A stretch of 50,078 nt of DNA from Bacteroidales bacterium (GCA_017538085.1 JAFYJP010000022.1:1-50078); one strand, 5' to 3'. Counted from the first letter of the stretch, positions 4,459 through 37,975 are shown. Translations and numbers: made by a program. Notes: generated from the sequence alone by a model not told the origin.

Positions 4459-4475
4459 CCGTAATTATTTTTTCG

Positions 4476-11292: not shown

Positions 11293-11336
11293 TCTTTAAC
11301 TTTTTATTAATTAATTTATATTTCCAAAACAATTTG

Positions 11337-11344: not shown

Positions 11345-11388
11345 TAAATTTATAGACAATAATCTAATTAATTGTCAGAAAATATTCA

Positions 11389-11904: not shown

Positions 11905-11931
11905 TTTCTGATATTTTTAAATAGTTAATAA

Positions 11932-14580
11932 TTAATCAATTGAACCGTTAATGGAGAAATGGAACTGACTGCCGTTGGCACTTGGATCGCCTGGGACATT
12001 ATCGAAGCCATAACCCCAGTCAAGACCAAGCAAACCGAACATCGGCATATAGATTCGTACACCCACACCCGCCGAACGATACAGGTCAAAAGGATTGACA
12101 CTCCTGAATGTTGCCCAGCAATTACCTGTTTCTATGAACATCAGCGCATAAATAACTGCATTCGGGTTGAGAGACAGAGGGTACCTCAATTCCACTGTGT
12201 TTTTGTTATAGACAGTACCGCCCACATCATTGTCAATGTAATGGTCAGGAGTAAGCGATTCGTTGGCATAACCTCTGAAACCAATGATTTCACGGCCATC
12301 GAAATTGTTGTAGGTACTGATACCGTCACCGCCAAGGAAATATCTTTCGAAAGGTGTGATTCCCAATGTCTTGTTGTAACATCCCAACACACCAACCTTG
12401 GTTCTTACCATAAGCACAAGATCACCTGCTATCTGCTGATACCAGGCAGCCTTGAAATCCCATTTGTGATATTCAATCCATCTGTAACGGTCGTTTGTTG
12501 ACATCTCGCTGTATTCCGCTGCAGTATGAGGATTGAAGAGAGAATACGGAGGAGTGAGCCTTACTCCGAGAGATATGTCGGAACCCCTGCGCGGATAAAA
12601 TATCTGGTCGGTGGAATTACGCGCCAGCGTTATACCATAATTGAAATTATAGTAATCGCCGTTGCCCGCCTCGTCGAACGCAAAAATACCCGTGTAGTTC
12701 ACCAATGAATATCTTATCATATTTATAGACTGATACAGAGTGAAAAAATCATCTGGCCACTCTAATCTTCTTCCTAATCCAAAAATCAGGCCATGCTGAT
12801 CAAAACTGCCATAATAAGAGCTGGTTTTTGAATATCCGTTGGTATAATGTGAATAATAATAAGTCGTACTGAAAGCGTTAGGTTTCTTGCCACCAAGCCA
12901 AGGCTCTGTAAATGAAACACTTCCACTGATATACCCAACACCGTATGTCTGAAGATGCAGACTCAAAGTCTGTCCGTCTCCCGCAGGAACAGGCTTCCAC
13001 GCATCCTTGTTGAAAAGATTTCTCATGGAGAAATTGGAAAACTTCACACCTACCGTACCGATAATTCTTCCGTAGGCATAACCTCCCGAAAGTTCCAACT
13101 GGTCGGAAGAAGTCTCTTCCACAGTGTATTTGAGGTCAATCGAACCGTCGGTCATGTTCTGCTCAACCTCCGGATTGATGGTCTCCGCATTAAAATATCC
13201 CAACGATGCAAGCTCTCTTTGAGAACGAATAATCTCCGACCTGCTGAACAAGTTTCCAGGGAGAGACCTCACATCTCTAAGTGCCACATTGTCATTTGTT
13301 TTAGTATTTCCAAAGAGCTTAACCTTATTGACCGATGCCTGAGTTCCTTCGATTATCTGTATCTCCATATCAATCGAATCGTTCTCTACCCTCACCTCCA
13401 CTGGATTCACACGGAAATAGAGATAACCGTCATCCATGTAAAGCGAGCTGACATCCATGCCGGTCATGTTGTAATTGAGGTTCGTCTCAAGCTCCTTCTG
13501 ATTATATACGTCACCCTTCTTGATTTTTAGAATCTGATTGAGATAATCCGACGAATATTTGGTGTTTCCGACCCAAGTGATGTTTCGGAAAAAATACTTG
13601 CTTCCTTCATCGATGTTAATGTCAAGCATCAGACTCTGACCATCGGGAGTAAAATAAACAGAGTCATTCAATATTTTGAAATCCCTGTAACCAAGAGTGT
13701 TATACTTATTCTCCAGAAGCAGTTTGTCCTCATCCCATTTGTCCTTGACAAATTTCGAAGACTTGAACAGGCGTATGCTTGCATTGTCAACCCCGTAGTT
13801 ATAGACATTGTAAAAAATGTCTCCAACATCAAGACTTCTTGCCGTCTTTAAGGTTGACATGAAAAGCGTGTCCATATTATCGATAATCGTGAAATGGCCT
13901 TTTTGCTTGGTTTCCTTGAAAGTGTTTTTGATGGCAGCATCGCTGAGATGGTCATTACCTGTAATATTAATGCTCTCAATCTTAACCTTGCGGTTTTTAT
14001 TGATATCTATCATGAGGCTCAGAGAGTTGACCTCAGTGGTATCCGGGATTTGCTTAATATCCACATCAACATTGTAATAGCCTTTTTTCATGTAAAAGGA
14101 CTTTATTCTGTTGGTGACACGGATAAGCATGTTGTCTGTCACGACATCGCCGCGTGTGATGTTGATTTCGTCACGGATGTCATCAACATCGCTCTTGCTG
14201 ATTCCCTTGAATGCGAATTTGGACAGGCGCGGGCGCTCTGCGAGATAAATATCGAGAAATATTTGACCGTCAACAATTGATGTGACAGTGATGGAGACAT
14301 CTTCAAAAAGGCCTTGTTTCCATAGGTTTTTGACTGCCTTTGTGATTTCCTCACCCGGAACTTCAACCACTTGTCCCACCCGCAGGCCGGAAAGCATCTT
14401 GAGGACATTTTCATCAAGAAATTCCACTCCGGAAATTGTGATTCCCCCTATTGTATATTTTTTTGGAGATGAATAACTTATATCCATCCCCGTATTGGAG
14501 AAACTTACCTGAGAGTATGCGTTCCCAACACAAATCAACAGTAAAAACAGGAATAGGTATAATTTTTTATTCATCAGCAA
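11932..14580 (-). CDS. bamA: Outer membrane protein assembly factor BamA (Omp85)
   Basis: 882 aa with a signal peptide, a POTRA-like N-terminal half and a C-terminal barrel. The uppS-bamA-skp synteny supports the call. The start may be the MNKK codon at 14574. Confidence 0.9.
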   Translation of the reverse strand: MLMNKKLYLFLFLLLICVGNAYSQVSFSNTGMDISYSSPKKYTIGGITISGVEFLDENVLKMLSGLRVGQVVEVPGEEITKAVKNLWKQGLFEDVSITVTSIVDGQIFLDIYLAERPRLSKFAFKGISKSDVDDIRDEINITRGDVVTDNMLIRVTNRIKSFYMKKGYYNVDVDIKQIPDTTEVNSLSLMIDINKNRKVKIESINITGNDHLSDAAIKNTFKETKQKGHFTIIDNMDTLFMSTLKTARSLDVGDIFYNVYNYGVDNASIRLFKSSKFVKDKWDEDKLLLENKYNTLGYRDFKILNDSVYFTPDGQSLMLDINIDEGSKYFFRNITWVGNTKYSSDYLNQILKIKKGDVYNQKELETNLNYNMTGMDVSSLYMDDGYLYFRVNPVEVRVENDSIDMEIQIIEGTQASVNKVKLFGNTKTNDNVALRDVRSLPGNLFSRSEIIRSQRELASLGYFNAETINPEVEQNMTDGSIDLKYTVEETSSDQLELSGGYAYGRIIGTVGVKFSNFSMRNLFNKDAWKPVPAGDGQTLSLHLQTYGVGYISGSVSFTEPWLGGKKPNAFSTTYYYSHYTNGYSKTSSYYGSFDQHGLIFGLGRRLEWPDDFFTLYQSINMIRYSLVNYTGIFAFDEAGNGDYYNFNYGITLARNSTDQIFYPRRGSDISLGVRLTPPYSLFNPHTAAEYSEMSTNDRYRWIEYHKWDFKAAWYQQIAGDLVLMVRTKVGVLGCYNKTLGITPFERYFLGGDGISTYNNFDGREIIGFRGYANESLTPDHYIDNDVGGTVYNKNTVELRYPLSLNPNAVIYALMFIETGNCWATFRSVNPFDLYRSAGVGVRIYMPMFGLLGLDWGYGFDNVPGDPSANGSQFHFSINGSID

Positions 14581-14586
14581 TTGGTT

Positions 14587-15309: not shown

Positions 15310-15315
15310 AATCTG

Positions 15316-16164
15316 TTATTTACGCAAATGATCATAACAATCATTCTTATTACTTAAATTGAAAGCAAAGCAGATACCCAACTGGAAAAACGAGTACCAG
15401 TCTTTGGTTGAACGATCACAGATGTGTGCATAGTCGATTCTGTCATCTTGATTCCAAAATTCAGCAGTTGCATCAATATATTTTTTATCAAAATAAAAGC
15501 CGTCAAGCCAGTCGATAAAAGTCTTGTGCATCACCCACTCGGCGAAAAGACCGATACGGTCGGAAACAGAATATTTGAAGCCGAAACCGAAGTTAATATT
15601 AGGTGTGATTTTCGCATGTTTACTCATAATACCAGTAGTGGAAGGATCGGGCCATTTCCGTCTTTGAATATCATCATTAGTTATGACGTATGAATATCTC
15701 AAAGAAGGGTCTTCGCCCACGAACGAACCCGAAAGGGAGAGCTGATAGGTGCCTCCTGCTCCCAAAATCATGTAAGGGGTCCAGAAATACCTTGATGCAC
15801 CGATGAAATAATTCAAAAAGTTGATTTCCAAAGTTGCACTGACATCAATCAAATTCGACTTGAACTCACCTTGGCGTGGAACATATCCAAGCTCTTTGCC
15901 AAAAATGCTTTTTTTGGCGTCATTTCCCGATATAGAGGCGTAATTGGCTGAAAGACGGGCAGAGAGTCGTTGACCGAAATTCCGCCTGTAATAGGCCCCA
16001 AATGAGGCGTGGACATTTGCGAACTGCGTCCTCGGATTCAATTCGCCGAGATAATAACTGCCTCCGCCTACAAAACCAAAATCGTTTCTCATCTGAGAAT
16101 AACAGTTGCTGACGCCAAGCGTGACAACACTCAATATTACCAAACACAACTTCTTCATCTGCAT
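15316..16164 (-). CDS. porG: Small outer-membrane beta-barrel protein (DUF6089-like), positional equivalent of T9SS PorG
   Basis: 282 aa with a signal peptide and alternating beta-strand pattern. It sits immediately upstream of uppS-bamA-skp-skp. As I recall, this is the position of PorG (PGN_0297) in Porphyromonas gingivalis. Confidence 0.5.
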   Translation of the reverse strand: MQMKKLCLVILSVVTLGVSNCYSQMRNDFGFVGGGSYYLGELNPRTQFANVHASFGAYYRRNFGQRLSARLSANYASISGNDAKKSIFGKELGYVPRQGEFKSNLIDVSATLEINFLNYFIGASRYFWTPYMILGAGGTYQLSLSGSFVGEDPSLRYSYVITNDDIQRRKWPDPSTTGIMSKHAKITPNINFGFGFKYSVSDRIGLFAEWVMHKTFIDWLDGFYFDKKYIDATAEFWNQDDRIDYAHICDRSTKDWYSFFQLGICFAFNLSNKNDCYDHLRK

Positions 16165-17462: not shown

Positions 17463-17489
17463 TGAACTAATTATTTAAATATTAATAAA

Positions 17490-17963
17490 TTATCGTGATA
17501 TTTCGAGAATCTTATACTTCATGATTCCAGCAGGCACCTTAATTTCCACTGTTTCGTCAACGGATTTTCCAAGCAGGCCTTTGGCGATAGGTGAAGAGAT
17601 GGAAATCTTGCCCAGTTTGAAGTTGGCTTCGTTTTCCGGAACGATAGTATAGGAGACTTCCTTATTATTCTGGAGGTTGAGGAGTTTCACTTTGGAGAGT
17701 ATCAGCACTTTTGAGGTGTCGATTTTGGATTCGTCAATAATACGGGCACATGCGAGATCTTCCTGCAGTTTGGCGATTTTATATTCGAGCATGCCCTGTG
17801 CATCCTTAGCGGCGTCATATTCGGCATTTTCGGAAAGGTCGCCTTTGTCGCGGGCCTCTGAAATCTGTCGCGCAACAGCCGGTCTTTCTACGGTTATAAG
17901 ATGCTGCAGTTCAGCTTTTAGTTTATTCAAACCTTCTTCTGTGAAATATTTTACTTTAGCCAT
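17490..17963 (-). CDS. greA: Transcription elongation factor GreA
   Basis: MAKVKYFTEEGLNKLKAEL...ARDKGDLSENAEYDAAK. I prefer the ATG at 17963 (157 aa) over the track start at 17981. Confidence 0.9.
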   Translation of the reverse strand: MAKVKYFTEEGLNKLKAELQHLITVERPAVARQISEARDKGDLSENAEYDAAKDAQGMLEYKIAKLQEDLACARIIDESKIDTSKVLILSKVKLLNLQNNKEVSYTIVPENEANFKLGKISISSPIAKGLLGKSVDETVEIKVPAGIMKYKILEISR

Positions 17964-18000
17964 AACACAAATATTTTGCAATAAATGATAGTAATAAAAT

Positions 18001-18037
18001 ACAAAAAGAAAGAACCCTAAGAAGAAAGGGTTCTTTC
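18001..18037 (-). terminator. Intrinsic terminator closing the TBDR / giant protein / PorV-like unit
   Basis: An 11-bp stem (gaaagaaccct / agggttctttc) with an 8-nt loop, followed on the minus strand by uuuuugu. It lies 26 nt after the stop at 18063. Confidence 0.7.
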
Positions 18038-18062: not shown

Positions 18063-19133
18063 TTAGAAGTCTAATTTTACGCCAACAGAATGAATGCCAC
18101 CGAACGGGTTGGTAAATCTGTAGCTATAGTCGATATCGAAACCTGTATGCTGTTCTTTGTTTACAGGAATATGGACTGTTGCGCCGCAGCTTGGACCTGT
18201 GTAGATGGTTTCACGGTTTGCAGCGTTTGTGATACCACTTTCATAGGTGTATCCGCCTCTGAGAATGAGGTAATCCTTGAATGAAAATTCAAGTCCGCCG
18301 ACGAACTGGTCTTTGGAGAATGCATTGGATACGAAGGTTGCTGCGAGGGTAAGACGATAGTTACCGTCGAACAGGAAGTCGTAACCGCCGCCGATGAGCA
18401 GTTGTGAAGGAAGTTCAAACGCATTAGGACGTACCATAAGAGTGAACTGGTTTTCACCTTTGCCTGAGAGGGTTGTACGAATTGAGAAACCATCGCCTGA
18501 ATATTTCATTGATGGACCCCAGTTTCTTAAGGTGATACCGAATTTGATGTTCTCGTGACGACCTGTAACATATTGAATACCGATATCAAATGCAACACCG
18601 GTAGCTGAAAGGTTAGGTATTGACTCACTGATAAGTTTAACCAGAATACCTGCGGAGATACTGTTGGAGAACAATCTTGAGAAACCGAGTCCCACATTCA
18701 GGAGATTAGGTGAGAAAGTTGCACCTGTCGGTTCCGGCTGGTCTTCAGAGGTATAATACACTTCACCGATGGAAAGGTTGGTGAAGTAAAGACTCAAGAC
18801 ACCGGCATTCCCCAGCTGTTGTGAAAGGGCAGCAGCCATAAGATTAAGATTGTTCATATAATTTGTATAGGTAAAGCCCACATCGGTACCTTTAGTGAAA
18901 GCGGCACCTGCAATATTGGAGAATGTGCTTTCAATACCGCGGACGAGGCCTGAATTGCAGTTGCCCCAACCGGAGGTCTGTGACCATGGATTTATTAAAA
19001 GTTCTGATGCACCTGCTTCACCGACACGATCCTTGTTTCCGGCCTGAAGTGACAACGGAAACATCATTAACACTACTAATAAAGCAGCAATACAATTTCT
19101 ATATATTTGTTTCATCATTGATAATTTTAACAT
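18063..19133 (-). CDS. PorV/PorQ-family (FadL-like) outer-membrane beta-barrel
   Basis: 356 aa with a signal peptide ending LSLQA. The N-terminal GEAGASELLINPW...GWG...FSNIAGAAF follows the PorV/PorQ N-terminal pattern (G-AGA-xL-I...G...NPAG). The C-terminus is GVKLDF. The start could be the internal MMKQ or MKQ codon. Confidence 0.65.
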   Translation of the reverse strand: MLKLSMMKQIYRNCIAALLVVLMMFPLSLQAGNKDRVGEAGASELLINPWSQTSGWGNCNSGLVRGIESTFSNIAGAAFTKGTDVGFTYTNYMNNLNLMAAALSQQLGNAGVLSLYFTNLSIGEVYYTSEDQPEPTGATFSPNLLNVGLGFSRLFSNSISAGILVKLISESIPNLSATGVAFDIGIQYVTGRHENIKFGITLRNWGPSMKYSGDGFSIRTTLSGKGENQFTLMVRPNAFELPSQLLIGGGYDFLFDGNYRLTLAATFVSNAFSKDQFVGGLEFSFKDYLILRGGYTYESGITNAANRETIYTGPSCGATVHIPVNKEQHTGFDIDYSYRFTNPFGGIHSVGVKLDF

Positions 19134-19154
19134 TTAACATAAAACAACTGAATA

Positions 19155-22100
19155 TTAGAAGGTATTTAAGTCGGTAGGACGTATCTGACCCATCCACTTC
19201 AAAGTCTTTGAACCAACACCTGGAACATCCACGTAAATGATGTAAATACCACTTGCGATAGGAATGTTGTGCTCGTTCTTCAAATCCCATTGCTGATATG
19301 ATTCATCACTGGACTTTGAGAATGAACGGATAAGCTGACCACTAATATTGAAAATCTTAATAGTACACGTTTGAGGCAGATTGACAATTCTTACATTGTT
19401 TTCAAGCTGGTTGGCATCATAATCACCAAGTCCGTAGTAAGGATTTGGAACAATGTTGATGTCATCAAGCTCTGTAACAAGCATTTCCTTGTTGTTTCTT
19501 TCAGCAGCCATACCATCGGTTGTGAAAGAGTAAACAGGATAATAGTAATTGTTATCAGCAGTAGGATCATTGATAACTTCATCTGTAAAGTATCTCTGAT
19601 AAGGTCTGTTGATTCTTATGGATACTGTAGCAGTGTTATCAAGATATGACTGTGCTGCATCATAATAACGCTGGTTAATCAATGGAATTGATACATACAT
19701 TGCAGCTGCATAGACACATTGACGTTTTTGATCTATGAGAACGTTTGGCAAGCCTTCTGTTCTTGTCAGAGCATCGTGGATAAACAGACCTGCATCGTAA
19801 GCCGGGCAGTCGAATGATGGGTTAGGAGTGTTTCCGAATACACCTGTTCTGCTTCCTATCACGTAGATGTAGTGTTTACCGCCAAAGAGAATTGCTGATG
19901 TTGGAGGATCTGCATATTGTGAAATTGGCTGATACATTCCCAAAACCTGATTTGGTGTCGGATTCCATTTCATATCACGTCCGTTTTCACCTATCAGCCA
20001 GGAGTCTTCACCAAACATCATGTTAAGTCTTTCACCAGTTTCAATGTTAATAGCATAACCTGGGAACCAGCCCATGCCCTTTGCACTGATGTAGTCAGGA
20101 GCCTCAGGGTCATCATAGTTAGGAGTGTAGTTGCCAGCAAGATACTGAGCCTTTGCAGCATCGGAGATGGTGTTGCCATTCTTGTCAACTGACCAGCCGT
20201 CTCTTACCATGTATTTTGCAACATTTCCTTCTGAAAGTGATGCATCGGAGCACATTTCGATGACAGGACAACGTGTCCATTTGGACTTGTCGGATGTGAA
20301 TACAACGTCAACGCTGTACAATGATTCCATCGGTGACAGCGACTTGGATGTTGAATTATAGGCAGGAGCCACATCATGCTGTGATGAAAAAGCTGCCATA
20401 CAGTATGGTGCCCATGTGCCGTTGAGAATGCCTTCGTATGCACTTCCTGGGTCCCATGCAAGACCGATAGGTGTACCATTACCACCAATACTCAGGTTCC
20501 AGTCGTTGTTTTCAGGTGCGGTGTTATCGGTTGACTCACCGGAACGTATCCAGTTGTATGCACCTGATTCATCAATATCCCTGACACCTGACAGCCATTT
20601 CTTTGTACTGTCGGCGTAAGTTATACCTGAATAAAGGAGACCGTTTTTACTTGTTCCTACCAAAATAGCCTTTTCAGCTTCTTCTGAACTTGATCCCTGA
20701 TAAGTACCAACAGTATAGTATTTGTTGAAGAATGTCTGTTCAAGTGTGATAGAAAGACCCAAATCCAGGAACAATTGTTCATATTTGAAAACCAATGAGG
20801 TGTCAGAATAGTAGGTGATATCGTTGTTAATATCGTGAAGTTGCCATGTGCACACTTCCATGCCCGCAGTATCCGCAACACCAACAGTAGATGAATTGGA
20901 AACATTGTGTTTTGTTGCGTAAGTGAATGGATCAAACTTAAGCTCGTATGTGGTATTGACAACGTTAAGAGGATCTATAACCTTGATGTTCAGAGGACTG
21001 TAATTCTTTTGGTATTGCATTTCGTATGCGATAGGATACTTGTCTGTTCCCATCACATAATCATTGTCCTTGAGGATGACGGAAGGATAGGTTTCCTTAT
21101 TGATGACTGTATCGACAAGCATCAGAGTACCATCGGCATTGAGCTGATATTTGATAGGCTCCTTGGAAAGGATTGTTTCAACACTTTTTTCATCGACATT
21201 AAGGATGAGACCGCCATTACCATGACCCTGAACACGTTTGATAGCCGGCTGGTCACCGTATGTTGAGTTAACTATTATACCACCCATAGGTTTGTGAGGT
21301 ATTGCCTCGTATGTCTTGATGTTCTTTCTACCAGAAAGGAAAGCCTTAGTCTGACCGTCAAGGCCGCAGTTTTCATCATGTTCTGAAAGCTGGTCGGAAT
21401 ACTTCTTATACATATTATAACCGTATGCAATAGCTGTGAAATAATATGACTTGTGGTTAACAAGCGTAGTATTGTCGAATGCATCAGTCGTAAGTTTGAA
21501 AGTATGGGAAATACCTGCATCTGCACCATTAACCATCATAGTTGGTACATTGGCATCGAGATTGGAATCATAAGTATAGTTGACAATCTTTGAAACGCCG
21601 TTGGTAATATCGCACTGGAAAACCTGACGGATCTTGGATTCATCACCTATATCAGAAATGCTGGCTTCATTGTCAACAAGCTGATACACGATATAACCTT
21701 CGAATTTGTATGTTGAAGAATCTCTGCTGTAGCCGACTGATTCGATGTAAGGGTCAACCTCTGAATAACTTTCACCGAAGTTGTTACCTGAATCGTTAGA
21801 CTCTCTGTTGGAGATGTAGAATACCAATTCGTTTTCAAGTTCAAGGATAGTCAAATCAGGAGCATTAGGACCGTTGACAACAGAGAAGCAGTTGTCAAAC
21901 AAAGCCTGACATTTGTCATCGACTGTGCGGAGAAGTTTAACTGAGCCGTTGATACCAGGGCCGCCGGAAGTGGCTCTTGCCCAAGGAATACCTACGGTGA
22001 TGTAGTTGACCATACCTGGACGAAGGGTGAAAGGACCTGCTGACTGCATGAAACGACGGTCATACGGAGTATTGTTGGCAGTTTCTTCAGTCCATTCAGG

Positions 22101-23795
22101 ATTAGCCGGCTTAACGCCGCTGGTACCCCACCAACAAGGATCGGAGTCACCAGGGAACATGAAGTCAGCGTCAATATCTTCAGCACCTGAACTGATGTGT
22201 CCGTTGCCACCATATTTCATCTTTGTGTTATCATTCCAAATACCTCTCAGCAAATTGTAGTAATCTGCAGCGTATTTAGGATCACTGTTATAGTTACCGC
22301 TTGTGTTAACGTGATATACGAAACGTCTCATGCCGAAACGTTCATCGTCAACTATACCATTACCGAAGTTGACACCGTTTATAGCCTCAGCTCTGACGAG
22401 GAATCTTCCTGTCTTAGGACCTACCTTAGGACCGTTACCGTATGTGAAATTAATCATCTGTCCATTCTGGGCAACGATAGAGCAGTCGAGGTTTTCATTG
22501 GCAGTATTTTGTGCATTGTAAGCAGGGCCGAGGAGACCGTCGCCATAGAATGCAGGGTTATCATAACCATCAGGATCAAGATAAGGACCCTGGAAGAAGT
22601 CAACACCGATTGCAGGAGGCTGTGAACCATAAGCATTGTACTGACCGCTACCATCAACATCCTTACCGTTGTAGCAATATCCGAGACCACGGAGAACATC
22701 ACATCCCACATAGTCATCGTAGCTGTAACCGAGGTCGGTATCAACCCACTGGCTGAAGTAAGTGTTAGTCAATGTATAAGAAGAACGGTTGATAATTTCG
22801 TATGAATAGAAAGTCATGTTATTGATTTCGTCATTGGAAGCGAAACCGAAAGCCTGACCTCTGATTTCGAAACCGGTAGCATCACCGAAACTTTCAGTGT
22901 GGATGTTACCTTTATCATTAAATACCCACCAAAGAGTTTCATCACCCTTGATACACTGGTCAACCTGGATGCCGTTGCCTTCCATAGTGGTTGCAGGAAC
23001 GAATGTCGGGTCACCGGCATAGTTTGAAGAGCAGAGAACGTTGCTCAAATCATAATAAGGGTAATCGCCCTTGTAAGGGTCGTAATTGCCATCATGGTCA
23101 TTGTCATAGAAAGGAGCGAGGTAATAGCTCTGATACTGTGACTTTGAGTCGGTCATATCCGGATGAGCAGGCCAGTTGATGATTTCATCAGGAATATTGT
23201 AATCCTCGTCAATTGAAGCATCGTAGTAACCTGTTTCCGGGTCACAATTTGCGAGGAAGTCATTTACCAGTTCCTGAGACATGAAGAACAATTTATCATA
23301 TTTCAGACAGGTGGCAGCATCGACTTCGGATATTGTGATACCTTCCTGAGGATTAGGGCTGTTCTTAACATACAGAGGACCTGGCCAATAGTCATTACCT
23401 CCGTTGAAAGTAGGACCCTGACGATATTTGACGGCAGCGACCTTCAGAACCTGATTGGCATCCACACCACCAATCCAGAGGGAACCCGAGAACATTGATG
23501 TTTTACTTGAGCCGGCAGGGATTTCATACTGCGGGTTTTCAAAGTCCCACCACATATCACCACCGGTGTTAATTCTACAACTTACGTTGTTGACCTGAAG
23601 ATATTTATAGTTAGCACCAGGTGCACAACCTGCTGAATTTGATTTGATTTCGTTTTCCGATTTACCTTGTTTCCTTCCTTTGGCTTCTTCGCAGTTGGCA
23701 GTAGTAAAGAATGAGAACAAAGCAAATGTTAAAAACAGACAAGCTATTTTTTTCATATTTATATAATTTTTTCTCATATTAAATCTCCTTATCAT
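19155..23795 (-). CDS. Giant uncharacterised secreted protein with a T9SS type-A C-terminal sorting domain
   Basis: 1546 aa in the track. The likely true start is the ATG at 23756 (MKKIACLFLTFALFSFFTTANC signal peptide). The last ~90 aa (IVPNPYYG...TIKIFNISGQLIRSF...GIYIIYVDVPG..KTLKWM) form a classic Por_Secre_tail. The body is N/D/Y/G-rich and I recognise no catalytic motif in it. Confidence 0.75.
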   Translation of the reverse strand: MIRRFNMRKNYINMKKIACLFLTFALFSFFTTANCEEAKGRKQGKSENEIKSNSAGCAPGANYKYLQVNNVSCRINTGGDMWWDFENPQYEIPAGSSKTSMFSGSLWIGGVDANQVLKVAAVKYRQGPTFNGGNDYWPGPLYVKNSPNPQEGITISEVDAATCLKYDKLFFMSQELVNDFLANCDPETGYYDASIDEDYNIPDEIINWPAHPDMTDSKSQYQSYYLAPFYDNDHDGNYDPYKGDYPYYDLSNVLCSSNYAGDPTFVPATTMEGNGIQVDQCIKGDETLWWVFNDKGNIHTESFGDATGFEIRGQAFGFASNDEINNMTFYSYEIINRSSYTLTNTYFSQWVDTDLGYSYDDYVGCDVLRGLGYCYNGKDVDGSGQYNAYGSQPPAIGVDFFQGPYLDPDGYDNPAFYGDGLLGPAYNAQNTANENLDCSIVAQNGQMINFTYGNGPKVGPKTGRFLVRAEAINGVNFGNGIVDDERFGMRRFVYHVNTSGNYNSDPKYAADYYNLLRGIWNDNTKMKYGGNGHISSGAEDIDADFMFPGDSDPCWWGTSGVKPANPEWTEETANNTPYDRRFMQSAGPFTLRPGMVNYITVGIPWARATSGGPGINGSVKLLRTVDDKCQALFDNCFSVVNGPNAPDLTILELENELVFYISNRESNDSGNNFGESYSEVDPYIESVGYSRDSSTYKFEGYIVYQLVDNEASISDIGDESKIRQVFQCDITNGVSKIVNYTYDSNLDANVPTMMVNGADAGISHTFKLTTDAFDNTTLVNHKSYYFTAIAYGYNMYKKYSDQLSEHDENCGLDGQTKAFLSGRKNIKTYEAIPHKPMGGIIVNSTYGDQPAIKRVQGHGNGGLILNVDEKSVETILSKEPIKYQLNADGTLMLVDTVINKETYPSVILKDNDYVMGTDKYPIAYEMQYQKNYSPLNIKVIDPLNVVNTTYELKFDPFTYATKHNVSNSSTVGVADTAGMEVCTWQLHDINNDITYYSDTSLVFKYEQLFLDLGLSITLEQTFFNKYYTVGTYQGSSSEEAEKAILVGTSKNGLLYSGITYADSTKKWLSGVRDIDESGAYNWIRSGESTDNTAPENNDWNLSIGGNGTPIGLAWDPGSAYEGILNGTWAPYCMAAFSSQHDVAPAYNSTSKSLSPMESLYSVDVVFTSDKSKWTRCPVIEMCSDASLSEGNVAKYMVRDGWSVDKNGNTISDAAKAQYLAGNYTPNYDDPEAPDYISAKGMGWFPGYAINIETGERLNMMFGEDSWLIGENGRDMKWNPTPNQVLGMYQPISQYADPPTSAILFGGKHYIYVIGSRTGVFGNTPNPSFDCPAYDAGLFIHDALTRTEGLPNVLIDQKRQCVYAAAMYVSIPLINQRYYDAAQSYLDNTATVSIRINRPYQRYFTDEVINDPTADNNYYYPVYSFTTDGMAAERNNKEMLVTELDDINIVPNPYYGLGDYDANQLENNVRIVNLPQTCTIKIFNISGQLIRSFSKSSDESYQQWDLKNEHNIPIASGIYIIYVDVPGVGSKTLKWMGQIRPTDLNTF

Positions 23796-23798
23796 AAA

Positions 23799-26700
23799 CT
23801 AAAAATTATAACTTACGCCTAAACGAATAAGTCTTGGACCTGAATAGTTGCCCGGAGTATCAACTCTCATCTGATATAACATCCTATAAGAATCGACACT
23901 GAGCTGCTGGCTGATTTCAGTCTGCCATTCGTCTGCTGTCAGATAACCATCATCATCTGGATTACCTGTTGCATCATAAACATCTACGATATTATGAGCA
24001 TTGAACAAGTTCAGAATCTGTAAGTAAACGTTCAGATAAGATTCTCTTGAACCATCCTTTTTAGTCTTGTTTGTAAGATAGAAATCTCTGTCAAGAATGA
24101 TATCGGTTCTCCAGAATGCAGGCATTCTCGAACCATTGATGGAACCATCGATGACTCTGTTGGAAGTTGTGATAGGATAAACCTTGCTGGATCTTGTATA
24201 AGGAGTACCGGAACCGCCACTGAAAACGATGTTAAGACCGGTATTCTCGAGCCAGTTGATATGTTTTTCCTGACCGTCTTTCGTCTTTCTGACTGTAACA
24301 GGACCATTGTAGTCCTTACCGTCAGAGAAACGGTAGTCGAGATTCAAAGACAGTCTGTGTCTCTGGTCTTCGTCCAGAGGTGACAGAGTACGGAGGTTAG
24401 GCTGACCTGAGGTGACAACTGACTTGGCAGCATCAGGGTCAGAGCCGGTACCGTTTGCAAACTGCAAGGTGTAGCTGGCTTTAAGTCTGATGTTTCTTGT
24501 TCTACGCAAGTCGAATGTTGCGGTCAGACCTTTAACTGTACCAAAGTCAAGGTTATCGTATGTGTAATATGTCTTAGGATAAGCACCGGTAACACGGTAA
24601 ATACAAATCTGATCACGGATTTCACGATAGAAAGCTGAAAGTGACAACGACGAGGTGTTGGTCAGCTTCTGCTGGAAACCGACTTCATAGTCGATTGTAG
24701 TTTCAGGTTTCAGATTAGGATTGTTAACCGTAGGAGATGATGTCGTTGAAAGGAAGTAATAGTCAGTCAATGACAATGTATTATAAGATGTAGGACGCTG
24801 TGTCAAGATATCATAGTGTGCAAAGAACAGAGCCTCATCCGAAATTGGGAATGAGAATGATATACGAGGCATAACGTTGATTTGTGGTTTATAATCGGTG
24901 AAAACATCAGCAGTAACTGTATTGCTGTTTTCAGGATTAGTCAGATAAGGTGATATTCCGTTGCCGGCATCGAGAGCTGTCTCAGGGTCGGAGGTATATG
25001 TACCGGCTGCGTCATACCATGTGCTTCCGTCACGGAAACCGAGAATCTGAGTAGGATCGTTGATTGTATTGACATAAACAATATAATCATCACCCATATT
25101 TGAAGGAACATTACCTATATTATTAAGGTTACCTGATGCAACGCCTGATTTGTAATCAGCAACTGTATAAGCACGGGAAGTGATAAGGTAATCATCCTTG
25201 AGGACTGCCTGGTTGGCATCATATCTGTCAACACGTACACCTATATTAAATACGAGGTCTCTGAAAGAGAACACATCCTGAAGGAATAACGCGCCATAGA
25301 CAGGACGGATGGAACCGATGCTTCTTGAATACTTGCCATTAGATAATGTATCTTGGAAAAAGTCATCGATAGTCGGATTGTAAGTCAGTTTGTTACCGTA
25401 TGGGTCATAACCAGCATAAGCAACGTATGAACCACCATCGTTGAGCAATTCGTCAGGGGAGAACATGGAAAGATTGAGTTTGCCGTTCAGACCTGCCACC
25501 TGATAATTGCCGCTTTCATCGTAATAGTTCATCGTATTGTTTATAGGATCGTATGAATCAACGTCTATCCATTCAGTGCCGTCAACAGGAAGATTCAACA
25601 TCTTTCTGAGTTCATAGTCAAAAGAACTCTGTGAAGTGGAACTGTACAGATAATTGTAATCAACAACTCCGAGGAAAACTCCGTTTTCGTCAACCAAAGG
25701 AATAGGGTTCTCGGTGTCAAGCTCGGTGATATGTGAGTTGACTCTACTTCTCATCAAAGTCCACAAAGAAGTGGTGGCTGCGCTGAAGTAAGAATTGATT
25801 TTCTGCTCAAACTGGAAACCGAACTGGAGAGCGTGGCCGCCTATATCACCGGAAGCCTTGAAACTTACACCTACCTGTTGGTTGTTGGCTATATAGTAGC
25901 CTGACTGTACTGTACCGAGAGTACCCCAAAGGCTATAAACTGAAGAAGGAGAATAGCCGTTGAGAAGACAACTTGCCGCAACTATGGCATTGTCATCTGA
26001 ATAGTAGTTAACATCACCCTCAAACAAATCGTAATACTTTGACATATAGTTTGCAAGCACTACATTCTTGGTGCCAGGTGTAAATGTGACGGAATCGTCA
26101 ACATAACCTGTATATACCAAAGCATTTACGTCCTTACCGTCTATGTCAATAGTGGACATCTCGTATCTTTTTGATTTGTAGGTGTTGTATTGACCAATAT
26201 ATCCGTATGAGAAGAGGTCATCCTTAAAATCAAAATCCTGGTTTTTGTAATGATATTGAGTGTAGTCGGCCTGAATTTCATAGAAGACATTCTTCAGGAG
26301 AGCATCTTCACTTGATCTGAAACGCTGGGTGAAACGACCGAAAACACGCCATGTGTTAGTAAGATAATGAACGTTCTTATTATAATTGAACATTGAATTT
26401 GCAAAACTGAAACCTCTGTAGTTCTGATAGTTGAAGCTACCACCGAAACTGAGGTTGGTCATATCAGATGTCTTGACGTCGAGCTTTGCTGAAACAGCGA
26501 CTTCAAGCTTAGGGGTGTTGAGGTTTTGTTTAACCCAATGCAAATCATCCATTGTAGTGAAGCAGGCTTCATTCCAAACGCCTGTACCCTCATCCGACAA
26601 TCTGATAGGATTTTGAGTCAGATAGTCAAGATATTCATCAGTAGCGATGTAGGTACCCTTAGCCGTAGGTCTGTTATCCACCTGATAGATAAAGTCGCCT

Positions 26701-27542
26701 GCGATGAAGTAACCGAGGATAGCACCAGGTTTTTCAGGATTCTTGCTCTGAATCAAAGGTCCGTTGAGGTTGATACCGAGTCTGTTGTAACCGTAAGCAT
26801 CAAGGCCTTTGCCCTGACCCAAGCCGGAAGACTGGAGTTCAACGCCCATACCGAAGACACGGCTTGGGCCCTTGGTTGTAGCGGAAATAATACCACCGGT
26901 AGCATCACCATACTGAGCAGGGATACCACCGAGGATGACTGAAATCTGGTCGTATGCCGACTGTGGAAGTGAAGTAGTACCGGTGACCTTGATACCGTCA
27001 ATGTAATAGACGGTACCTGAAGAACGCTGACCACGGATACTACCGACCTCACCATCACGTGAGAACACGCCACCGACAGTAGAAGCTACGGCAGCGATAG
27101 TCTTTTCAGGCATCTTTTCGATTTCCTCTGATGTAACGGTACCACCACTCTGGGTTTTATCCTTACTGATAAGCGGTACCTCATACTCAACGACCTCAAC
27201 TTCGTTAAGGCCCACAGCACCAGAACTCATTGTGATGTTCTGGAATGTGATTACATCGGCAGAAACATGCACTCCATTCATCTGAAAGGTTTTGTAACCT
27301 ACAAACTGTGCAACCAATGTATAATTGCCAGGTTCCAGAGGCTTGATGGTGAAATTACCATCAAAGTCAGTGGCACATCCGCCCTTCTGAATTCCGTCAA
27401 CCTGCGCAACAACATTTGCGAATGGAATAGGTTCCTTTGTGTCTTTGTCAATAACAGTACCCTTAATGGTACCTGTTTGACCCATCAAACCAATACTTAA
27501 AACAAGCAATAGTCCAATTGAAGAGAGTAATTTTTTTACCAT
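23799..27542 (-). CDS. TonB-dependent-receptor-like outer-membrane barrel with N-terminal carboxypeptidase-regulatory-like domain
   Basis: 1247 aa with a signal peptide. GTIKGTVIDKDTKEPIPFANVV..TDFDGNFTIKPLEPGNYTLVAQFVGY is CarboxypepD_reg-like. A plug-like segment follows (IRGQRSSGTVYYIDGIKV). The terminal GVSYNF is an OMP beta-signal. Confidence 0.75.
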   Translation of the reverse strand: MVKKLLSSIGLLLVLSIGLMGQTGTIKGTVIDKDTKEPIPFANVVAQVDGIQKGGCATDFDGNFTIKPLEPGNYTLVAQFVGYKTFQMNGVHVSADVITFQNITMSSGAVGLNEVEVVEYEVPLISKDKTQSGGTVTSEEIEKMPEKTIAAVASTVGGVFSRDGEVGSIRGQRSSGTVYYIDGIKVTGTTSLPQSAYDQISVILGGIPAQYGDATGGIISATTKGPSRVFGMGVELQSSGLGQGKGLDAYGYNRLGINLNGPLIQSKNPEKPGAILGYFIAGDFIYQVDNRPTAKGTYIATDEYLDYLTQNPIRLSDEGTGVWNEACFTTMDDLHWVKQNLNTPKLEVAVSAKLDVKTSDMTNLSFGGSFNYQNYRGFSFANSMFNYNKNVHYLTNTWRVFGRFTQRFRSSEDALLKNVFYEIQADYTQYHYKNQDFDFKDDLFSYGYIGQYNTYKSKRYEMSTIDIDGKDVNALVYTGYVDDSVTFTPGTKNVVLANYMSKYYDLFEGDVNYYSDDNAIVAASCLLNGYSPSSVYSLWGTLGTVQSGYYIANNQQVGVSFKASGDIGGHALQFGFQFEQKINSYFSAATTSLWTLMRSRVNSHITELDTENPIPLVDENGVFLGVVDYNYLYSSTSQSSFDYELRKMLNLPVDGTEWIDVDSYDPINNTMNYYDESGNYQVAGLNGKLNLSMFSPDELLNDGGSYVAYAGYDPYGNKLTYNPTIDDFFQDTLSNGKYSRSIGSIRPVYGALFLQDVFSFRDLVFNIGVRVDRYDANQAVLKDDYLITSRAYTVADYKSGVASGNLNNIGNVPSNMGDDYIVYVNTINDPTQILGFRDGSTWYDAAGTYTSDPETALDAGNGISPYLTNPENSNTVTADVFTDYKPQINVMPRISFSFPISDEALFFAHYDILTQRPTSYNTLSLTDYYFLSTTSSPTVNNPNLKPETTIDYEVGFQQKLTNTSSLSLSAFYREIRDQICIYRVTGAYPKTYYTYDNLDFGTVKGLTATFDLRRTRNIRLKASYTLQFANGTGSDPDAAKSVVTSGQPNLRTLSPLDEDQRHRLSLNLDYRFSDGKDYNGPVTVRKTKDGQEKHINWLENTGLNIVFSGGSGTPYTRSSKVYPITTSNRVIDGSINGSRMPAFWRTDIILDRDFYLTNKTKKDGSRESYLNVYLQILNLFNAHNIVDVYDATGNPDDDGYLTADEWQTEISQQLSVDSYRMLYQMRVDTPGNYSGPRLIRLGVSYNF

Positions 27543-27608
27543 ACCATATAATTTTATTTATTTATTAATTTGCATAATACACACATTTTACACGAATGTA
27601 ATAATTTG

Positions 27609-27616
27609 CAAATTTA
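27609..27616 (-). promoter_or_regulatory. -7 box candidate (TAAATTTG on the minus strand) for the three-gene unit
   Basis: Plus-strand CAAATTTA is the only CAAAnnTA in the 27543-27830 spacer. It lies 67 nt upstream of the ATG at 27542. Confidence 0.4.
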
Positions 27617-27831
27617 AGTAAATTTTACCTTTTAATAAGGTAAAGTTTATGTTTTTTTTAAAAAAATTTAATATTTCCTTCCTATGGCCCCCTCCAATCA
27701 GTTCAACTTTTTAATTTTTAAGACTTTATAAATTCATTTTTTTATCAACAACCATTCTGAAACCTATTATTATTATAAAAAAATACTTGTATCTTTACAA
27801 AAAATTTTATAAGATATCAAAAAATAACAAT

Positions 27832-27876
27832 AAAAAAAGGGATATTGTTTCAATCATACTGTTGAAAAAATATCCC
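27832..27876 (-). terminator. Intrinsic terminator after the Cys-rich lipoprotein gene
   Basis: The hairpin is gggatatt-g-tttcaa...ttgaaa-a-aatatccc (8 bp, then a mismatch, then 6-7 bp). A U7 run follows on the minus strand. It starts 19 nt after the stop at 27895. Confidence 0.7.
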
Positions 27877-27894
27877 GATATGTTGATAAATATT

Positions 27895-28350
27895 TTAGTG
27901 GCTGACTATGACATACCTGCCATCGAAATAAGTGTCATATTGTTTGAGAGGACAGTTGGTAGGCTGCTTGTCATCAATTGGCCATCCTTCACCGCCGTAC
28001 AAAATCAAAAACTGGGCACCGCATTTGTCACACTGCGGTATCAGTATCCACGGCTCCCATGACACTGTCCCGCCCGCAGAAACACAGTCGTTGGGACAGG
28101 CTCTTTCGTATGCCACAAAATCATCATGGGCACCCTCACTTTTCTGACGAAAGACTATTATTCCTTTGTAACCGACCGTTTCATCAAGGATTGAGCCGTT
28201 GACACTCCACAGGTCACGATTTGAAGTCAGATTAAGGTCATACGAGCGTTGGAATGTCACCACCTCCGGAATTTCACCGTAGTCAACCTGTCTGCAGGAT
28301 GACAGCAGCAACACCGCCATAATCACGGAAAATATTTGCAATTTATTCAT
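27895..28350 (-). CDS. Small lipoprotein with a four-Cys (CxxxC...CxxC) metal-site-like motif, possibly a Rieske-like fold
   Basis: 151 aa with lipobox LLLSSC. It contains ERACPNDC...PQCDKCG and a C-terminal YFDGRYVIVSH. Confidence 0.5.
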   Translation of the reverse strand: MNKLQIFSVIMAVLLLSSCRQVDYGEIPEVVTFQRSYDLNLTSNRDLWSVNGSILDETVGYKGIIVFRQKSEGAHDDFVAYERACPNDCVSAGGTVSWEPWILIPQCDKCGAQFLILYGGEGWPIDDKQPTNCPLKQYDTYFDGRYVIVSH

Positions 28351-35638: not shown

Positions 35639-37975
35639 ATGAAAAAAATATTAATAACCCTGTCATTTATAACAGTATTTTTTGCAGCCACCGCACAGGA
35701 GACAGTAAGTATAGGCAACTGGCGCGGTCATTTCCCATACAATGCAATGACTTCAGTGGCGTCCGACTACAACGGAAACGTATATGCAGCATCGAAATTC
35801 AGCCTATTTTCCTACAACAAGGCCACAGGACTGATAGATATCTATTCCAAAATAAACTACCTGTCCGACATTGGCATCACATGTATCAGGTACAGCAACA
35901 AGTACAACACACTGCTGATAGCTTATTCCAATGCCAATCTGGATTTGCTGGTTGACGGGAAAATATACAACATGAATGACATTTACAGGAGCAACATCGT
36001 AGGCAACAAGACCATCAACAAAATATTTGTCAAAGACAGATACGCTTATTTGAGTTGCGGTTTCGGAATTGTGGTCATCGACCTCCTGAAGCGTGAAGTT
36101 GCAGACACATACTATATCGGCAGCAACGGCACATACGTCAACGTGCTTGATTTTGCGTACATGGATAACATTCAATCTTTTATAGCTGCAACAGACAATG
36201 GTCTGTATATTGCAAATGCCGATGACAATCTGTCGAATTTTGTAAACTGGCATAAAATTGAGGATATGCCTCATGCCACTTCGGTATTCAATGAAGTTGA
36301 ATATTTCTATTCGAATCTGATAGCCAATGTCAGGTCCACCACTTTCAACAGCGACACCCTACTCGTTTTCAATGGCAGCAACTGGAGATATTTCAGCGAA
36401 AACCTACAGTTTGATGCCGTCAATGACATATCGGTTTCAGAAGACACTCTGGTAATCACATGTTTGTATGACATCAAGACTTACAACAGCAATTTGGAAT
36501 ATATCGAAAACTATTGGCAATATTGGGATGAAAACGGAGCTCCCAATCCAGTTGAGACAGTTAAGGACGGAAAATCCCTATGGGTTGCCGACAGCCGTTT
36601 CGGACTTGTGGAATGCACCGACCCATGGAAAGGCTTTAGCATAAAACCGTCAGGACCTGAAGTTTCGCAGGCCTTCAATCTTATAAAGGAAGGCAAGAAG
36701 ATGTATGCTGTTCCGGGAGGTTACAACCTGTCATGGGTTCCTTTGTATAGTAATGCAAAATACAGCGTTTTCGAGGATTATGACTGGAAAACATTCTCCT
36801 CGGCTGACATTCCGGATTTCGCAGACTTTTCCGACTTTACAGATGTGGCTGTAGATCCACGCAATTCCGACAGGGTATTCATAGCATCATATTTTCACGG
36901 ACTTATCGAAATCAACAACGGTGAAGTCGTCAATGTTTACAACGGAAGCAACAGTCCTATGCTTGCACCTACAGGATATACCGATGAATATGTCCGCTGC
37001 GGGGGAATTGTTTTCGATGATGACAACAATTTGTGGGTCACTCATTCTATCGGTTCGGGAATCCTCAATGTGCTTTTGGCTGATGGCACATGGGCAAACG
37101 CTTCAAACGGAGGGCTTTTCCCAAATGTCAACAACGCAGATGTTTCATCGATAGTCATTGACCATTACGGAAGCAAATGGATTAAGACAAGGAGTTATGC
37201 TTCAATCTACGTCATGAATGATGGCGGCACTCCAAAAAATCCGAGTGACGACAAATATAAGATTCTCACCAACGCTGTAGGAAATGGTGCTCTGAGCGGC
37301 CAGATTTCATCCATCGCCGTTGACTACGACGGTGAAGTATGGATAGGTTCCGACCTTGGACTAAAAGTCATATACAACCCTAGAAACATCTTCGAAGGCG
37401 GCAGTTTTGATGCACAGGAAATACTGGTGGAATATGATGGGACTATACGCCCGTTGCTTGAAAGTGAGAGTGTTACAGCCATAGCTGTCGATTTCGGCAA
37501 CAACAAATGGATAGGCACTGCATCATCGGGTGTTTATTATATCAGCGGCAACGGAACCACCCAGTACAACCACTTCACAAAGGAAAATTCATGTCTGCTG
37601 TCAAACAATATCACCGCAATAAGCGTAAACTACGATGGTGAAGTGTTCATCAGCACATCCAACGGTATCTGTTCTTATAAAGGTGAATCTTCCGAGCCAT
37701 CGGATGACAACAGCGGAATCTACGCCTTCCCTAATCCTGTAAGACCTGAATATACAGGTAATATAGGGGTTACGGGACTTGTTGAGGATGCATTCGTTAA
37801 AATCGTGGATATGGCAGGAAGAGTTGTCTATTCACAGCAGTCCAATGGTGGAATGATAACCTGGGACGGCAATCTTCCTAACGGAAACAGAGCCTCATCG
37901 GGTGTCTATATCGTATTTGCTACCAATAGCAGCGGAAAGGAACGTGCAGTGACGAAAATACTTTTCATCAAATAA
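35639..37975 (+). CDS. porZ: PorZ-like T9SS component: two-propeller protein with a T9SS C-terminal domain
   Basis: 778 aa (P. gingivalis PorZ is about 776 aa as recalled). It has a signal peptide, propeller-repeat-like segments (..WIGT.SGVYY.., ..VWIGSDLGLKV..) and the CTD IYAFPNPVRPE...VKIVDMAGRVVY...GVYIVFAT. Confidence 0.6.
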   Translation: MKKILITLSFITVFFAATAQETVSIGNWRGHFPYNAMTSVASDYNGNVYAASKFSLFSYNKATGLIDIYSKINYLSDIGITCIRYSNKYNTLLIAYSNANLDLLVDGKIYNMNDIYRSNIVGNKTINKIFVKDRYAYLSCGFGIVVIDLLKREVADTYYIGSNGTYVNVLDFAYMDNIQSFIAATDNGLYIANADDNLSNFVNWHKIEDMPHATSVFNEVEYFYSNLIANVRSTTFNSDTLLVFNGSNWRYFSENLQFDAVNDISVSEDTLVITCLYDIKTYNSNLEYIENYWQYWDENGAPNPVETVKDGKSLWVADSRFGLVECTDPWKGFSIKPSGPEVSQAFNLIKEGKKMYAVPGGYNLSWVPLYSNAKYSVFEDYDWKTFSSADIPDFADFSDFTDVAVDPRNSDRVFIASYFHGLIEINNGEVVNVYNGSNSPMLAPTGYTDEYVRCGGIVFDDDNNLWVTHSIGSGILNVLLADGTWANASNGGLFPNVNNADVSSIVIDHYGSKWIKTRSYASIYVMNDGGTPKNPSDDKYKILTNAVGNGALSGQISSIAVDYDGEVWIGSDLGLKVIYNPRNIFEGGSFDAQEILVEYDGTIRPLLESESVTAIAVDFGNNKWIGTASSGVYYISGNGTTQYNHFTKENSCLLSNNITAISVNYDGEVFISTSNGICSYKGESSEPSDDNSGIYAFPNPVRPEYTGNIGVTGLVEDAFVKIVDMAGRVVYSQQSNGGMITWDGNLPNGNRASSGVYIVFATNSSGKERAVTKILFIK

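Follow-up and report, generated by a model that had tools for sequence, protein, structure and literature searches.

In the 50,078-nucleotide (nt) stretch of DNA from a Bacteroidales bacterium analysed here (GCA_017538085.1, JAFYJP010000022.1:1-50078; the window, numbered throughout from its first letter), positions 18063 to 27542 are occupied by three large genes of the minus strand, A, B and C. They encode a TonB-dependent barrel, a giant protein with a type IX secretion system (T9SS) sorting domain and an outer-membrane barrel of the PorV/PorQ family, respectively. The order of the three genes is strictly kept in about 150 of about 160 related loci. We tentatively favour a reading in which B is exported by the T9SS, kept on the cell surface by C and active together with the transporter A; as a complete chain, this reading may well be wrong. 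That the unit represents an outer-membrane machine class not recognised so far, in which a TonB-dependent barrel has a T9SS-delivered giant partner of novel fold and its own PorV-family dock, is possible, and we hold it with considerable doubt. That the three products form a surface complex outside every described system is a well-founded hypothesis.

The three genes are:

23799..27542, minus strand: gene A, 1247 amino acids, 138 kDa; signal peptide, N-terminal extension (residues 26-117), plug (residues 128-218), large barrel and C-terminal Phe
19155..23795, minus strand: gene B, 1546 amino acids (probably 1533, start at 23756); secreted protein carrying a T9SS type A sorting domain, of a family not yet characterised
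18063..19133, minus strand: gene C, 356 amino acids (probably 350, start at 19115); PorV/PorQ-family outer-membrane barrel

These co-oriented open reading frames (ORFs) had been proposed by an earlier interpretation made from the DNA alone (the sequence-only reading), and their coordinates were confirmed. The same reading had given intergenic gaps of about 3 and 21 nt, which are correct for the longest ORFs (3 nt between A and B, 21 nt between B and C) but not for the likelier starts. Judging from the lengths of homologues, together with the gene called in a 98%-identical relative (L162, where B has 1533 amino acids), B probably starts at M14 (23756) and C at about M7 (19115), the latter giving a protein of 350 amino acids. 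Because of these later starts, both gaps become about 40 nt, in agreement with the median gaps of 35 nt (A-B) and 33 nt (B-C) measured across 80 related loci. In the same loci, the median gap between C and the greA gene that follows it is 107 nt.

The AT-rich 352-bp spacer and the bracketing terminators described by the sequence-only reading were also recovered. The region that precedes A and the two boundaries of the unit comprise:

27543..27894, minus strand: AT-rich leader/promoter spacer upstream of A, 352 bp; GC content 19.9%, compared with 43% for the window and for the unit
27609..27616, minus strand: candidate promoter element TAAATTTG, read from the sequence; fits TAnnTTTG, 67 nt 5' of the ATG of A
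27839..27876, minus strand: terminator-like hairpin belonging to the upstream gene and marking the 5' boundary of the unit; -14.7 kcal/mol, z -3.8, 0 of 200 shuffles equally stable, T run to 27832
18008..18037, minus strand: intrinsic-terminator-like hairpin after C, 3' boundary of the unit before greA; 11-bp stem and T run, -17.1 kcal/mol, z -5.5

A hairpin with a T run is present in the C-greA spacer of 68 of 75 related loci. From the spacing of the genes, the bracketing hairpins and the conservation of the hairpin after C, we infer that A, B and C are co-transcribed as one operon. The 300 nt located 5' of A are AT-rich in related loci too (median GC 0.32). TAnnTTTG, which we take to be the Bacteroidota -7 promoter consensus, occurs 5' of A in 23 of 63 loci, compared with 17% of random 300-nt windows, which is a weak enrichment. 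A scan for sigma-70-type promoters returned 28 sites for 28.9 expected and was uninformative, such a scan not covering Bacteroidota promoters. The 352-nt leader was searched for an Rfam family or riboswitch that might give a clue to the substrate, and none was detected.

Two small ORFs found upstream of A were considered as members of the unit and rejected. The first (27895..28350, minus strand) encodes a small lipoprotein of 151 amino acids with a lipobox-like LLLSSC motif and a Cys-rich ERACP.D...C..CG motif, without Pfam match. It is kept beside ahcY in many loci (L001-L080; L081:8778-9275), where it lies on the opposite strand, so that, set against most loci, the window seems to carry it inverted. 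The second is an acidic ORF of 160 amino acids with an N-terminal hydrophobic segment; 45 of 80 loci have it directly 5' of A, and the window lacks it.

The distribution of the unit was determined with two scans. In the first, made on one genome per species, at least 598 genomes contained a relative of B, and the best 80 loci, from 80 assemblies, were examined; the second, made on metagenomes, was seeded with a divergent member. The gene-neighbourhood check proposed by the sequence-only reading found the trio syntenic: the order A-B-C is strict in about 150 of about 160 related loci, nearly all of which show A-B-C-greA-HIT, and the exceptions among the 80 genome loci are contig ends or loci with an extra copy of B. 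The order persists where identity is as low as 31-38% (A), 33-40% (B) and 34-41% (C), a TARA ocean contig among the examples, and the position of the trio, with ahcY upstream and greA-HIT downstream, is fixed across a large clade. The best 80 genome loci come from uncultured Bacteroidales, Lentimicrobiaceae and Prolixibacteraceae; overall, the lineages that carry the unit are Lentimicrobiaceae, Prolixibacteraceae, Salinivirgaceae and numerous unnamed Bacteroidales, and they originate from digesters, sediments, guts and the ocean. The cultured Lentimicrobium saccharophilum TBC1 has the same block (L081, DF968182.1, about 2.126-2.150 Mb). Homologues are numerous for each protein: 2157 for A, named TonB-dependent receptor; more than 5764 full-length homologues for B, none with a Pfam domain; and 3803 for C, named 'PorV/PorQ family protein' or DUF3308. 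Searched alone, the N-terminal domain of B gave 6329 matching clusters (50% identity), of which 1473 had E<=1e-30, and the names of B homologues, including those obtained by cluster look-up of distant relatives, are only hypothetical protein or 'T9SS type A sorting domain-containing'.

Two deposited labels do not fit this distribution. One locus with the complete A-B-C-greA-HIT block of Bacteroidales type (L009, JBLMZZ010000017.1) bears the deposited name 'Omnitrophica WOR_2 bacterium', and one homologue of A (P0455) is labelled Chloroflexota; both are probably mis-binned contigs. The greA and HIT genes follow the trio in nearly every locus, even where the identity of the trio is about 32%. 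This persistence looks like frozen gene order and is striking all the same; a terminator separates the two genes from C.

Pairwise distances point to co-evolution of the three proteins. Pairwise-distance correlations calculated over 61 loci were 0.92 for A-B, 0.80 for B-C and 0.74 for A-C, compared with 0.50 for the control pair GreA-HIT, and they were 0.83, 0.61 and 0.48, respectively, after GreA and HIT had been regressed out; such mirror-tree values are inflated by protein length, long proteins giving less noisy distances, and are supportive only. The tightest co-evolving pair is A-B.

The TonB-dependent-receptor-like barrel, the T9SS cargo of no known family and the PorV/PorQ-like barrel that the sequence-only reading had announced were all borne out by profile searches. 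The N-terminus of A, MVKKLLSSIGLLLVLSIGLMGQ, reads as a signal peptide. The N-terminal extension matches PF13715 (CarbopepD_reg_2; 67.4 bits, above cut-off) and PF13620 (59.5 bits), the plug matches PF07715 (residues 128-218; 34.3 bits for a cut-off of 23.9) and the barrel matches PF00593 (residues 642-1179; 46.1 bits for a cut-off of 27). The protein ends with ...SYNF, and F1247 is invariant among orthologues. One motif lies between the N-terminal extension and the plug:

27183..27203, minus strand: TonB-box-like motif EVEVVEY, residues 114-120 of A, read from the sequence

This motif resembles xEVVVxGY, presumably the consensus of the Bacteroidota TonB box. In 20 orthologues the region has the consensus VEVVDY; E116 is nearly invariant, and Y120, P123, L124, I125 and D128 are invariant.

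In searches of the PDB, the N-terminal extension matched 9hfj_A (a SusC homologue; E 4.7e-6) and 6ytc (a TonB-dependent receptor), and a profile of A orthologues matched the plugs of PqqU, YncD and PfeA. SusC/RagA models (TIGR04056 type) did not match A, and the only NCBIfam matches at E<=0.01 were two generic TonB-dependent receptor models, far under their cut-offs. Because it matches no SusC/RagA model and its PDB matches are limited to N-terminal extensions and plugs, A is classed as a divergent and unusually large TonB-dependent transporter. Its identification as SusC/RagA was rejected, there being no family-model match and no solved SusC/RagA chain matching beyond the N-terminal extension. 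As the sequence-only reading had noted, there is no SusD-like partner: neither B nor C matches a SusD family of Pfam or NCBIfam, and the same is true of the L. saccharophilum locus.

The organization of A and B is nonetheless reminiscent of SusCD, RagAB, BtuB-BtuG and the utilisomes, in that a TonB-dependent barrel with a plug and a CarboxypepD_reg-type N-terminal extension, and in A a TonB-box-like motif between them, is encoded directly 5' of the gene for a surface-exposed partner. It differs from the SusCD type in that A lacks a SusC/RagA match, the partner B is a T9SS substrate of 1,500 residues and not a SusD-like lipoprotein, and a third gene would supply the anchor. It differs from polysaccharide utilisation loci in that the A-B-C unit is apparently single-copy and fixed beside housekeeping genes.

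The B protein read from M14 begins with MKKIACLFLTFALFSFFTTANC, which is signal-peptide-like by eye. Four regions can be recognised:

21876..23657, minus strand: N-terminal domain, residues 47-640; largest highly conserved block, mostly beta
21306..21875, minus strand: FN3-like beta-sandwich region, residues 641-830; conservation 0.66
19464..21305, minus strand: central and C-terminal body, residues 831-1444; beta-sandwiches, then an alpha/beta domain; conservation 0.50-0.52
19158..19463, minus strand: C-terminal sorting domain, type A, residues 1445-1546; from TIGR04183 and Foldseek

The protein is collinear over its full length; identity is 44-53% across the 80 genome loci and still about 33-40% among the most divergent loci, and hundreds of columns, clustered charged motifs included, are invariant. 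In the N-terminal domain, the mean column conservation is 0.70, 37% of the columns are nearly invariant, and invariant Asp, Asn, Tyr and Trp are abundant; the single DxDxDG loop of B is found there, at residue 231. The alpha/beta domain has the invariant motifs GMGWFPGYAI.ETGERLN..FGEDS, GGKHY and YDA, retained in members at 32-49% identity. In total, 152 polar residues of B are invariant. The most conserved region of all is the sorting domain (0.74, no indels).

The sorting domain gave the only family assignment of B: TIGR04183 was matched at 24.8 bits (cut-off 23), and Pfam PF18962 at 17 bits, below its cut-off of 27. PF18962 was also matched by 16 of 20 relatives of B at E<=1. No other Pfam or NCBIfam match was found for B, for its 20 close relatives (E<=1) or for 32 distant ones (E<=0.001), so that the giant protein, with these 52 relatives, matches no characterised family. 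Catalytic motifs (HExxH, GxSxG or similar) were looked for in B and none was seen; there is no recognisable protease motif.

Structural searches gave the same picture. The AlphaFold2 model of residues 800-1546 is good, with a predicted local distance difference test score (pLDDT) of 89.2 and a predicted template modelling score (pTM) of 0.84. With Foldseek, this half matched PDB structures through the sorting domain only (PorZ 5m11, E 8e-6, probability 1.00; RgpB C-terminal domain, E 0.03), and BFVD gave similar results. The model of residues 40-860 has a pLDDT of 69.5. Against the PDB, the N-terminal half had no Foldseek match below E 5e-3, a weak negative as this model is mediocre, and its only recurrent matches were FN3 and cytokine-receptor domains (E 0.1-1). 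The body of B thus appears to have no family model and no structural relative in PDB or BFVD. A profile of B, searched against the PDB, retrieved only sorting-type domains: PorU (6za2, E 0.004), PorZ (5m11, E 0.007, about 121 columns), then the Ig-like domain of FlgD. The PorU and PorZ sorting domains rank ahead of those of any cargo protein in this search, but these matches are weak and may merely mirror which sorting domains the PDB holds. The sorting domain of B also aligns with that of the PorZ protein encoded in the window (BLASTP, E 1e-4).

Three identities of B were considered and rejected. B is not PorU: Peptidase_C25 is absent from B and from its 52 relatives and the match to 6za2 involves the sorting domain only; because PorU was present in the PDB library searched and only this domain was matched, the body of B is not PorU-like. 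B is not PorZ, as it does not match the propeller (PF21544), its similarity to 5m11 is confined to the sorting domain, and a separate PorZ is encoded in the window. Finally, B is not a characterised enzyme or adhesin, since no glycosidase, protease or adhesin family of Pfam or NCBIfam and no fold match in PDB or BFVD was found for its body.

C matches the PorV/PorQ family model NF033709 with 142.7 bits (cut-off 90), its residues 42-356 covering the entire 326-position model. It stays under the cut-offs of the equivalog models: PorQ NF033711, 67 bits for 220 (a partial match, residues 68-210); PorV NF033710, 63.1 for 250; and PorV2 NF052325, 21.1 for 325. The match between C and Flavobacterium johnsoniae PorV (6h3i_F) is weak (E 0.086). 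In the precomputed Pfam annotation of C homologues, PF19572 (PorV) alternates with PF11751 (PorP_SprF), some of the PF11751 matches being weak. By these scores, C is a member of the PorV/PorQ family that is neither PorV, PorQ nor PorV2. The sequence-only reading had called it a dedicated PorV/PorQ paralogue; this holds in that the three equivalog models reject C, while the canonical PorV and PorQ were judged from the window only.

This last point leaves room for a simpler explanation, which we judge very improbable: C would be the general PorQ/PorV-type shuttle of the lineage and B an ordinary cleaved cargo, adjacent to C by conserved gene order and engaged in no dedicated interaction with it. 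C passes only the broad family model, any canonical PorV and PorQ of these genomes would lie outside the loci examined, and greA and HIT are equally syntenic with no presumed functional link. Nevertheless, Bacteroidales orthologues of PorQ or PorV would be expected to pass the equivalog cut-offs that C misses so widely. The B-C gap of about 33 nt and the presence of a terminator after C only also speak against a general shuttle, as do the B-C distance correlation, which is above that of the control pair, and a sorting domain in B conserved far beyond the need of a disposable signal. Such conservation fits a retained, specifically bound domain.

Retained C-terminal domains are known to dock on cognate barrels, PorU on PorV, PorZ on PorQ and type B cargo on PorP (PMC10202324). 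B and C resemble the PorU-PorV and PorZ-PorQ pairs of Porphyromonas gingivalis in associating a type A T9SS surface protein with a 14-strand barrel of the PorV/PorQ family, and the sorting domains that B matches best are those of PorU and PorZ. They differ from them in that the body of B has neither C25 peptidase nor PorZ propellers, C fails the PorV and PorQ equivalogs, and the canonical PorZ is encoded separately in the window. The porU and porV genes are adjacent; a TonB-dependent barrel belongs to the A-B-C unit and not to porUV or porQZ.

A second precedent is the type B cargo SprB of F. johnsoniae and its barrel SprF: a small barrel is encoded beside a large cargo and anchors it without anionic lipopolysaccharide (A-LPS) (PMC9143113; PMC10202324). 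The unit shares with SprB-SprF a dedicated small barrel gene beside a large cargo gene, and some C orthologues weakly match PF11751 (PorP_SprF). Unlike SprB, B has a type A domain (TIGR04183) and not a type B one, C scores with the PorV/PorQ family, and the SprB-SprF type has no TonB-dependent barrel. The BAM complex of Bacteroidota offers a structural analogy, with a FadL-like barrel, BamG, that holds BamH, a surface protein (PMC12578637). This arrangement is comparable to the one proposed for the unit, as a small FadL/PorV-like barrel carries on its loops a large extracellular protein and a bigger barrel stands beside it; it differs in that BamH is a surface lipoprotein and not a T9SS cargo, and that the partner barrel is BamA, which is not a TonB-dependent transporter and is encoded separately in the window.

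The reading that we favour can be described as follows. A, B and C, which by eye all have Sec signal peptides, would be produced from one operon and form an outer-membrane surface module. B would be exported by the T9SS by means of its type A C-terminal sorting domain. This domain would probably not be cut off by PorU, and B would not be ligated to A-LPS. Instead, the retained domain would plug into the extracellular face of the dedicated barrel C, in the manner of PorU on PorV, PorZ on PorQ and type B cargo on PorP/SprF. Docking on C would keep the body of B, about 1,400 residues, at the cell surface beside A. A would be a TonB-coupled gated barrel in which about 400 residues of extra loop may form a large extracellular platform. 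The body of B, which has many invariant Asp, Asn, Tyr and Trp and no protease motif, would capture or process a ligand outside the cell, a glycan or some other polymer being the most plausible candidate; A would then import the ligand or its product with TonB energy.

Several observations weigh against this reading, in addition to the length effect on the distance correlations, the weakness of the PorU and PorZ matches and the weak negative obtained with the N-terminal half of B. No riboswitch, anti-sigma factor or regulator that would hint at a substrate was found at the locus. The sequence-only reading had suggested that the unit could be a SusC/SusD-like device whose lid is delivered by the T9SS, but B exceeds every known transporter lid by far, being three times as large. 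Extra full-length copies of B, with no extra A or C, sit after greA in several loci (L029, 3937-8147 and 10001-14179; L036, 14936-19132; L041, 16096-20313; L076, 16094-20065; L157, 9528-13673). B is found alone in L140, L148 and L161, and a few contigs carry B alone or a B-B tandem. Because of these additional and stand-alone copies, B is not strictly dependent on an A and a C of its own; the paralogues may share one A/C pair or function without one. Finally, the trio is apparently single-copy (80 loci in 80 assemblies), vertically inherited and placed among housekeeping genes, and a single-copy, vertical unit amid ahcY, greA and HIT fits a core envelope function better than it fits a nutrient-uptake locus.

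The copies of B that lack A and C also speak for an explanation in which B has a structural role at the surface, for instance as an adhesin, as an S-layer-like coat or in gliding, with C as its anchor and A merely co-transcribed and mechanistically unlinked. B is large and beta-rich, with FN3-like or beta-sandwich modules, and some of its distant members have PKD inserts. We find this explanation improbable: fast evolution and a variable number of repeats are typical of adhesins and S-layer proteins, whereas B is collinear, with its hundreds of invariant columns and its clustered charged motifs; moreover, A and B co-evolve most tightly and their adjacency is almost never broken.

The housekeeping-like behaviour of the trio favours the main rival of our reading, which we consider rather unlikely, in which the trio is no nutrient importer and instead assists the T9SS or cell-surface biogenesis as an accessory module specific to the lineage. 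A would be a PorF-like barrel, C a third dock of the attachment-complex type and B a docked enzyme or carrier placed like PorU or PorZ, which would modify, sort or anchor other surface molecules, for example a glycolipid anchor or a subset of cargo. The apparently single-copy, vertical character of the unit, its fixed site next to ahcY and greA-HIT, and the presence 2-7 kb away of the genes for the near-cut-off PorG match, UppS, BamA and Skp are in line with this proposal. In addition, the mean evolutionary rate of A, B and C equals that of the HIT protein, the sorting domain of B is most like those of PorU and PorZ, and 152 invariant polar residues are what an enzyme would show. PorF (PG0534), a TonB-dependent-receptor-like barrel of 92 kDa, is required for full T9SS output (PMC5445135; PMC12704123), and in C. 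hutchinsonii PorV co-immunoprecipitates with a PorF-like TonB-dependent receptor (PMC8564354), a precedent of barrel-barrel association that speaks for the favoured reading as well. PorF resembles A as a barrel of the TonB-dependent-receptor type that is functionally tied to the T9SS. It is set apart from A by size (about 92 compared with 138 kDa, or about 820 compared with 1247 amino acids) and by description, as PorF is not reported beside a giant cargo or a PorV-like gene.

Other results count against an accessory role. B is unlike the C25 peptidase of PorU and the propellers of PorZ in sequence and in fold, and a canonical PorZ is already present in the window. The conserved TonB-box-like motif and plug of A argue for real transport. 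To our knowledge, the B family is absent from P. gingivalis and the other T9SS model organisms, in which saturating screens defined the components; if so, the trio is not a universal part of the T9SS.

The remainder of the window provides the context of the unit. Its other features of interest are:

35639..37975, plus strand: canonical PorZ, 778 amino acids; PF21544 N-terminal beta-propeller, E 1.2e-40
17070-17981, minus strand: greA and a HIT-family gene, which follow C after the terminator
15316..16164, minus strand: PorG match, NF052316, 127.7 bits, just under the cut-off of 130
11932..14580, minus strand: BamA, TIGR03303, 326.7 bits

PorZ and the near-cut-off PorG match are the only T9SS components visible in the window, and they show that the host organism has T9SS machinery. 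An envelope-biogenesis cluster (10768-16164, minus strand) lies 2-7 kb downstream of the unit and includes the PorG match, UppS, BamA and two tandem OmpH/Skp genes. At 44672-48022 (plus strand), an ORF of 1116 amino acids has a sub-threshold DUF4175 match (27.0 bits, cut-off 27.3); the AT skew is 0.34-0.36 in this region (46-48 kb), compared with about 0 elsewhere in the window. At 1396-6262 (minus strand), two AAA-type ATPase genes (DUF4143/AAA_14; AAA_22/NPHP3_N-like) adjoin an MBOAT acyltransferase gene, and the GC content reaches 0.52 at 3-4 kb; this segment may be a mobile or defence-type insertion.

No description of the trio was found in the literature searched, which did not extend to subscription journals, and the term undescribed is therefore provisional. 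Each class of part (TonB-dependent transporter, type A cargo and PorV-family barrel) is already known, as is the anchoring of a retained C-terminal domain by a cognate PorV-like barrel. The novelty lies in the way the three parts are combined, in the near-universal conservation of this combination in a large clade without model organisms, and in the body of B, for which neither a family model (Pfam, NCBIfam) nor a structural relative (PDB, BFVD) was found.

Present knowledge of T9SS and of TonB-dependent uptake rests on a few models, P. gingivalis, F. johnsoniae and Bacteroides. The unit, as well conserved as housekeeping genes are, is represented in at least about 600 species-level genomes and among metagenomic protein clusters by the thousands, and the locus is present in a cultured isolate, L. 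saccharophilum TBC1. If the proposed architecture is right, it would join T9SS surface anchoring and TonB-gated import, which are usually treated apart, it would give the principle of retention by a cognate PorV-like barrel and C-terminal domain a new partner, and it would define a large new protein family, probably with a new fold. The possible new class of outer-membrane machine, if real, would provide a third way, beside lipoprotein lids and soluble hemophore-type carriers, of giving a TonB-dependent transporter an extracellular partner, and a third pair of retained C-terminal domain and barrel beside PorU-PorV and PorZ-PorQ. The module would then be of ancient origin, nearly universal within a large clade of Bacteroidia from the environment and the gut, and absent from the organisms in which the T9SS was defined.

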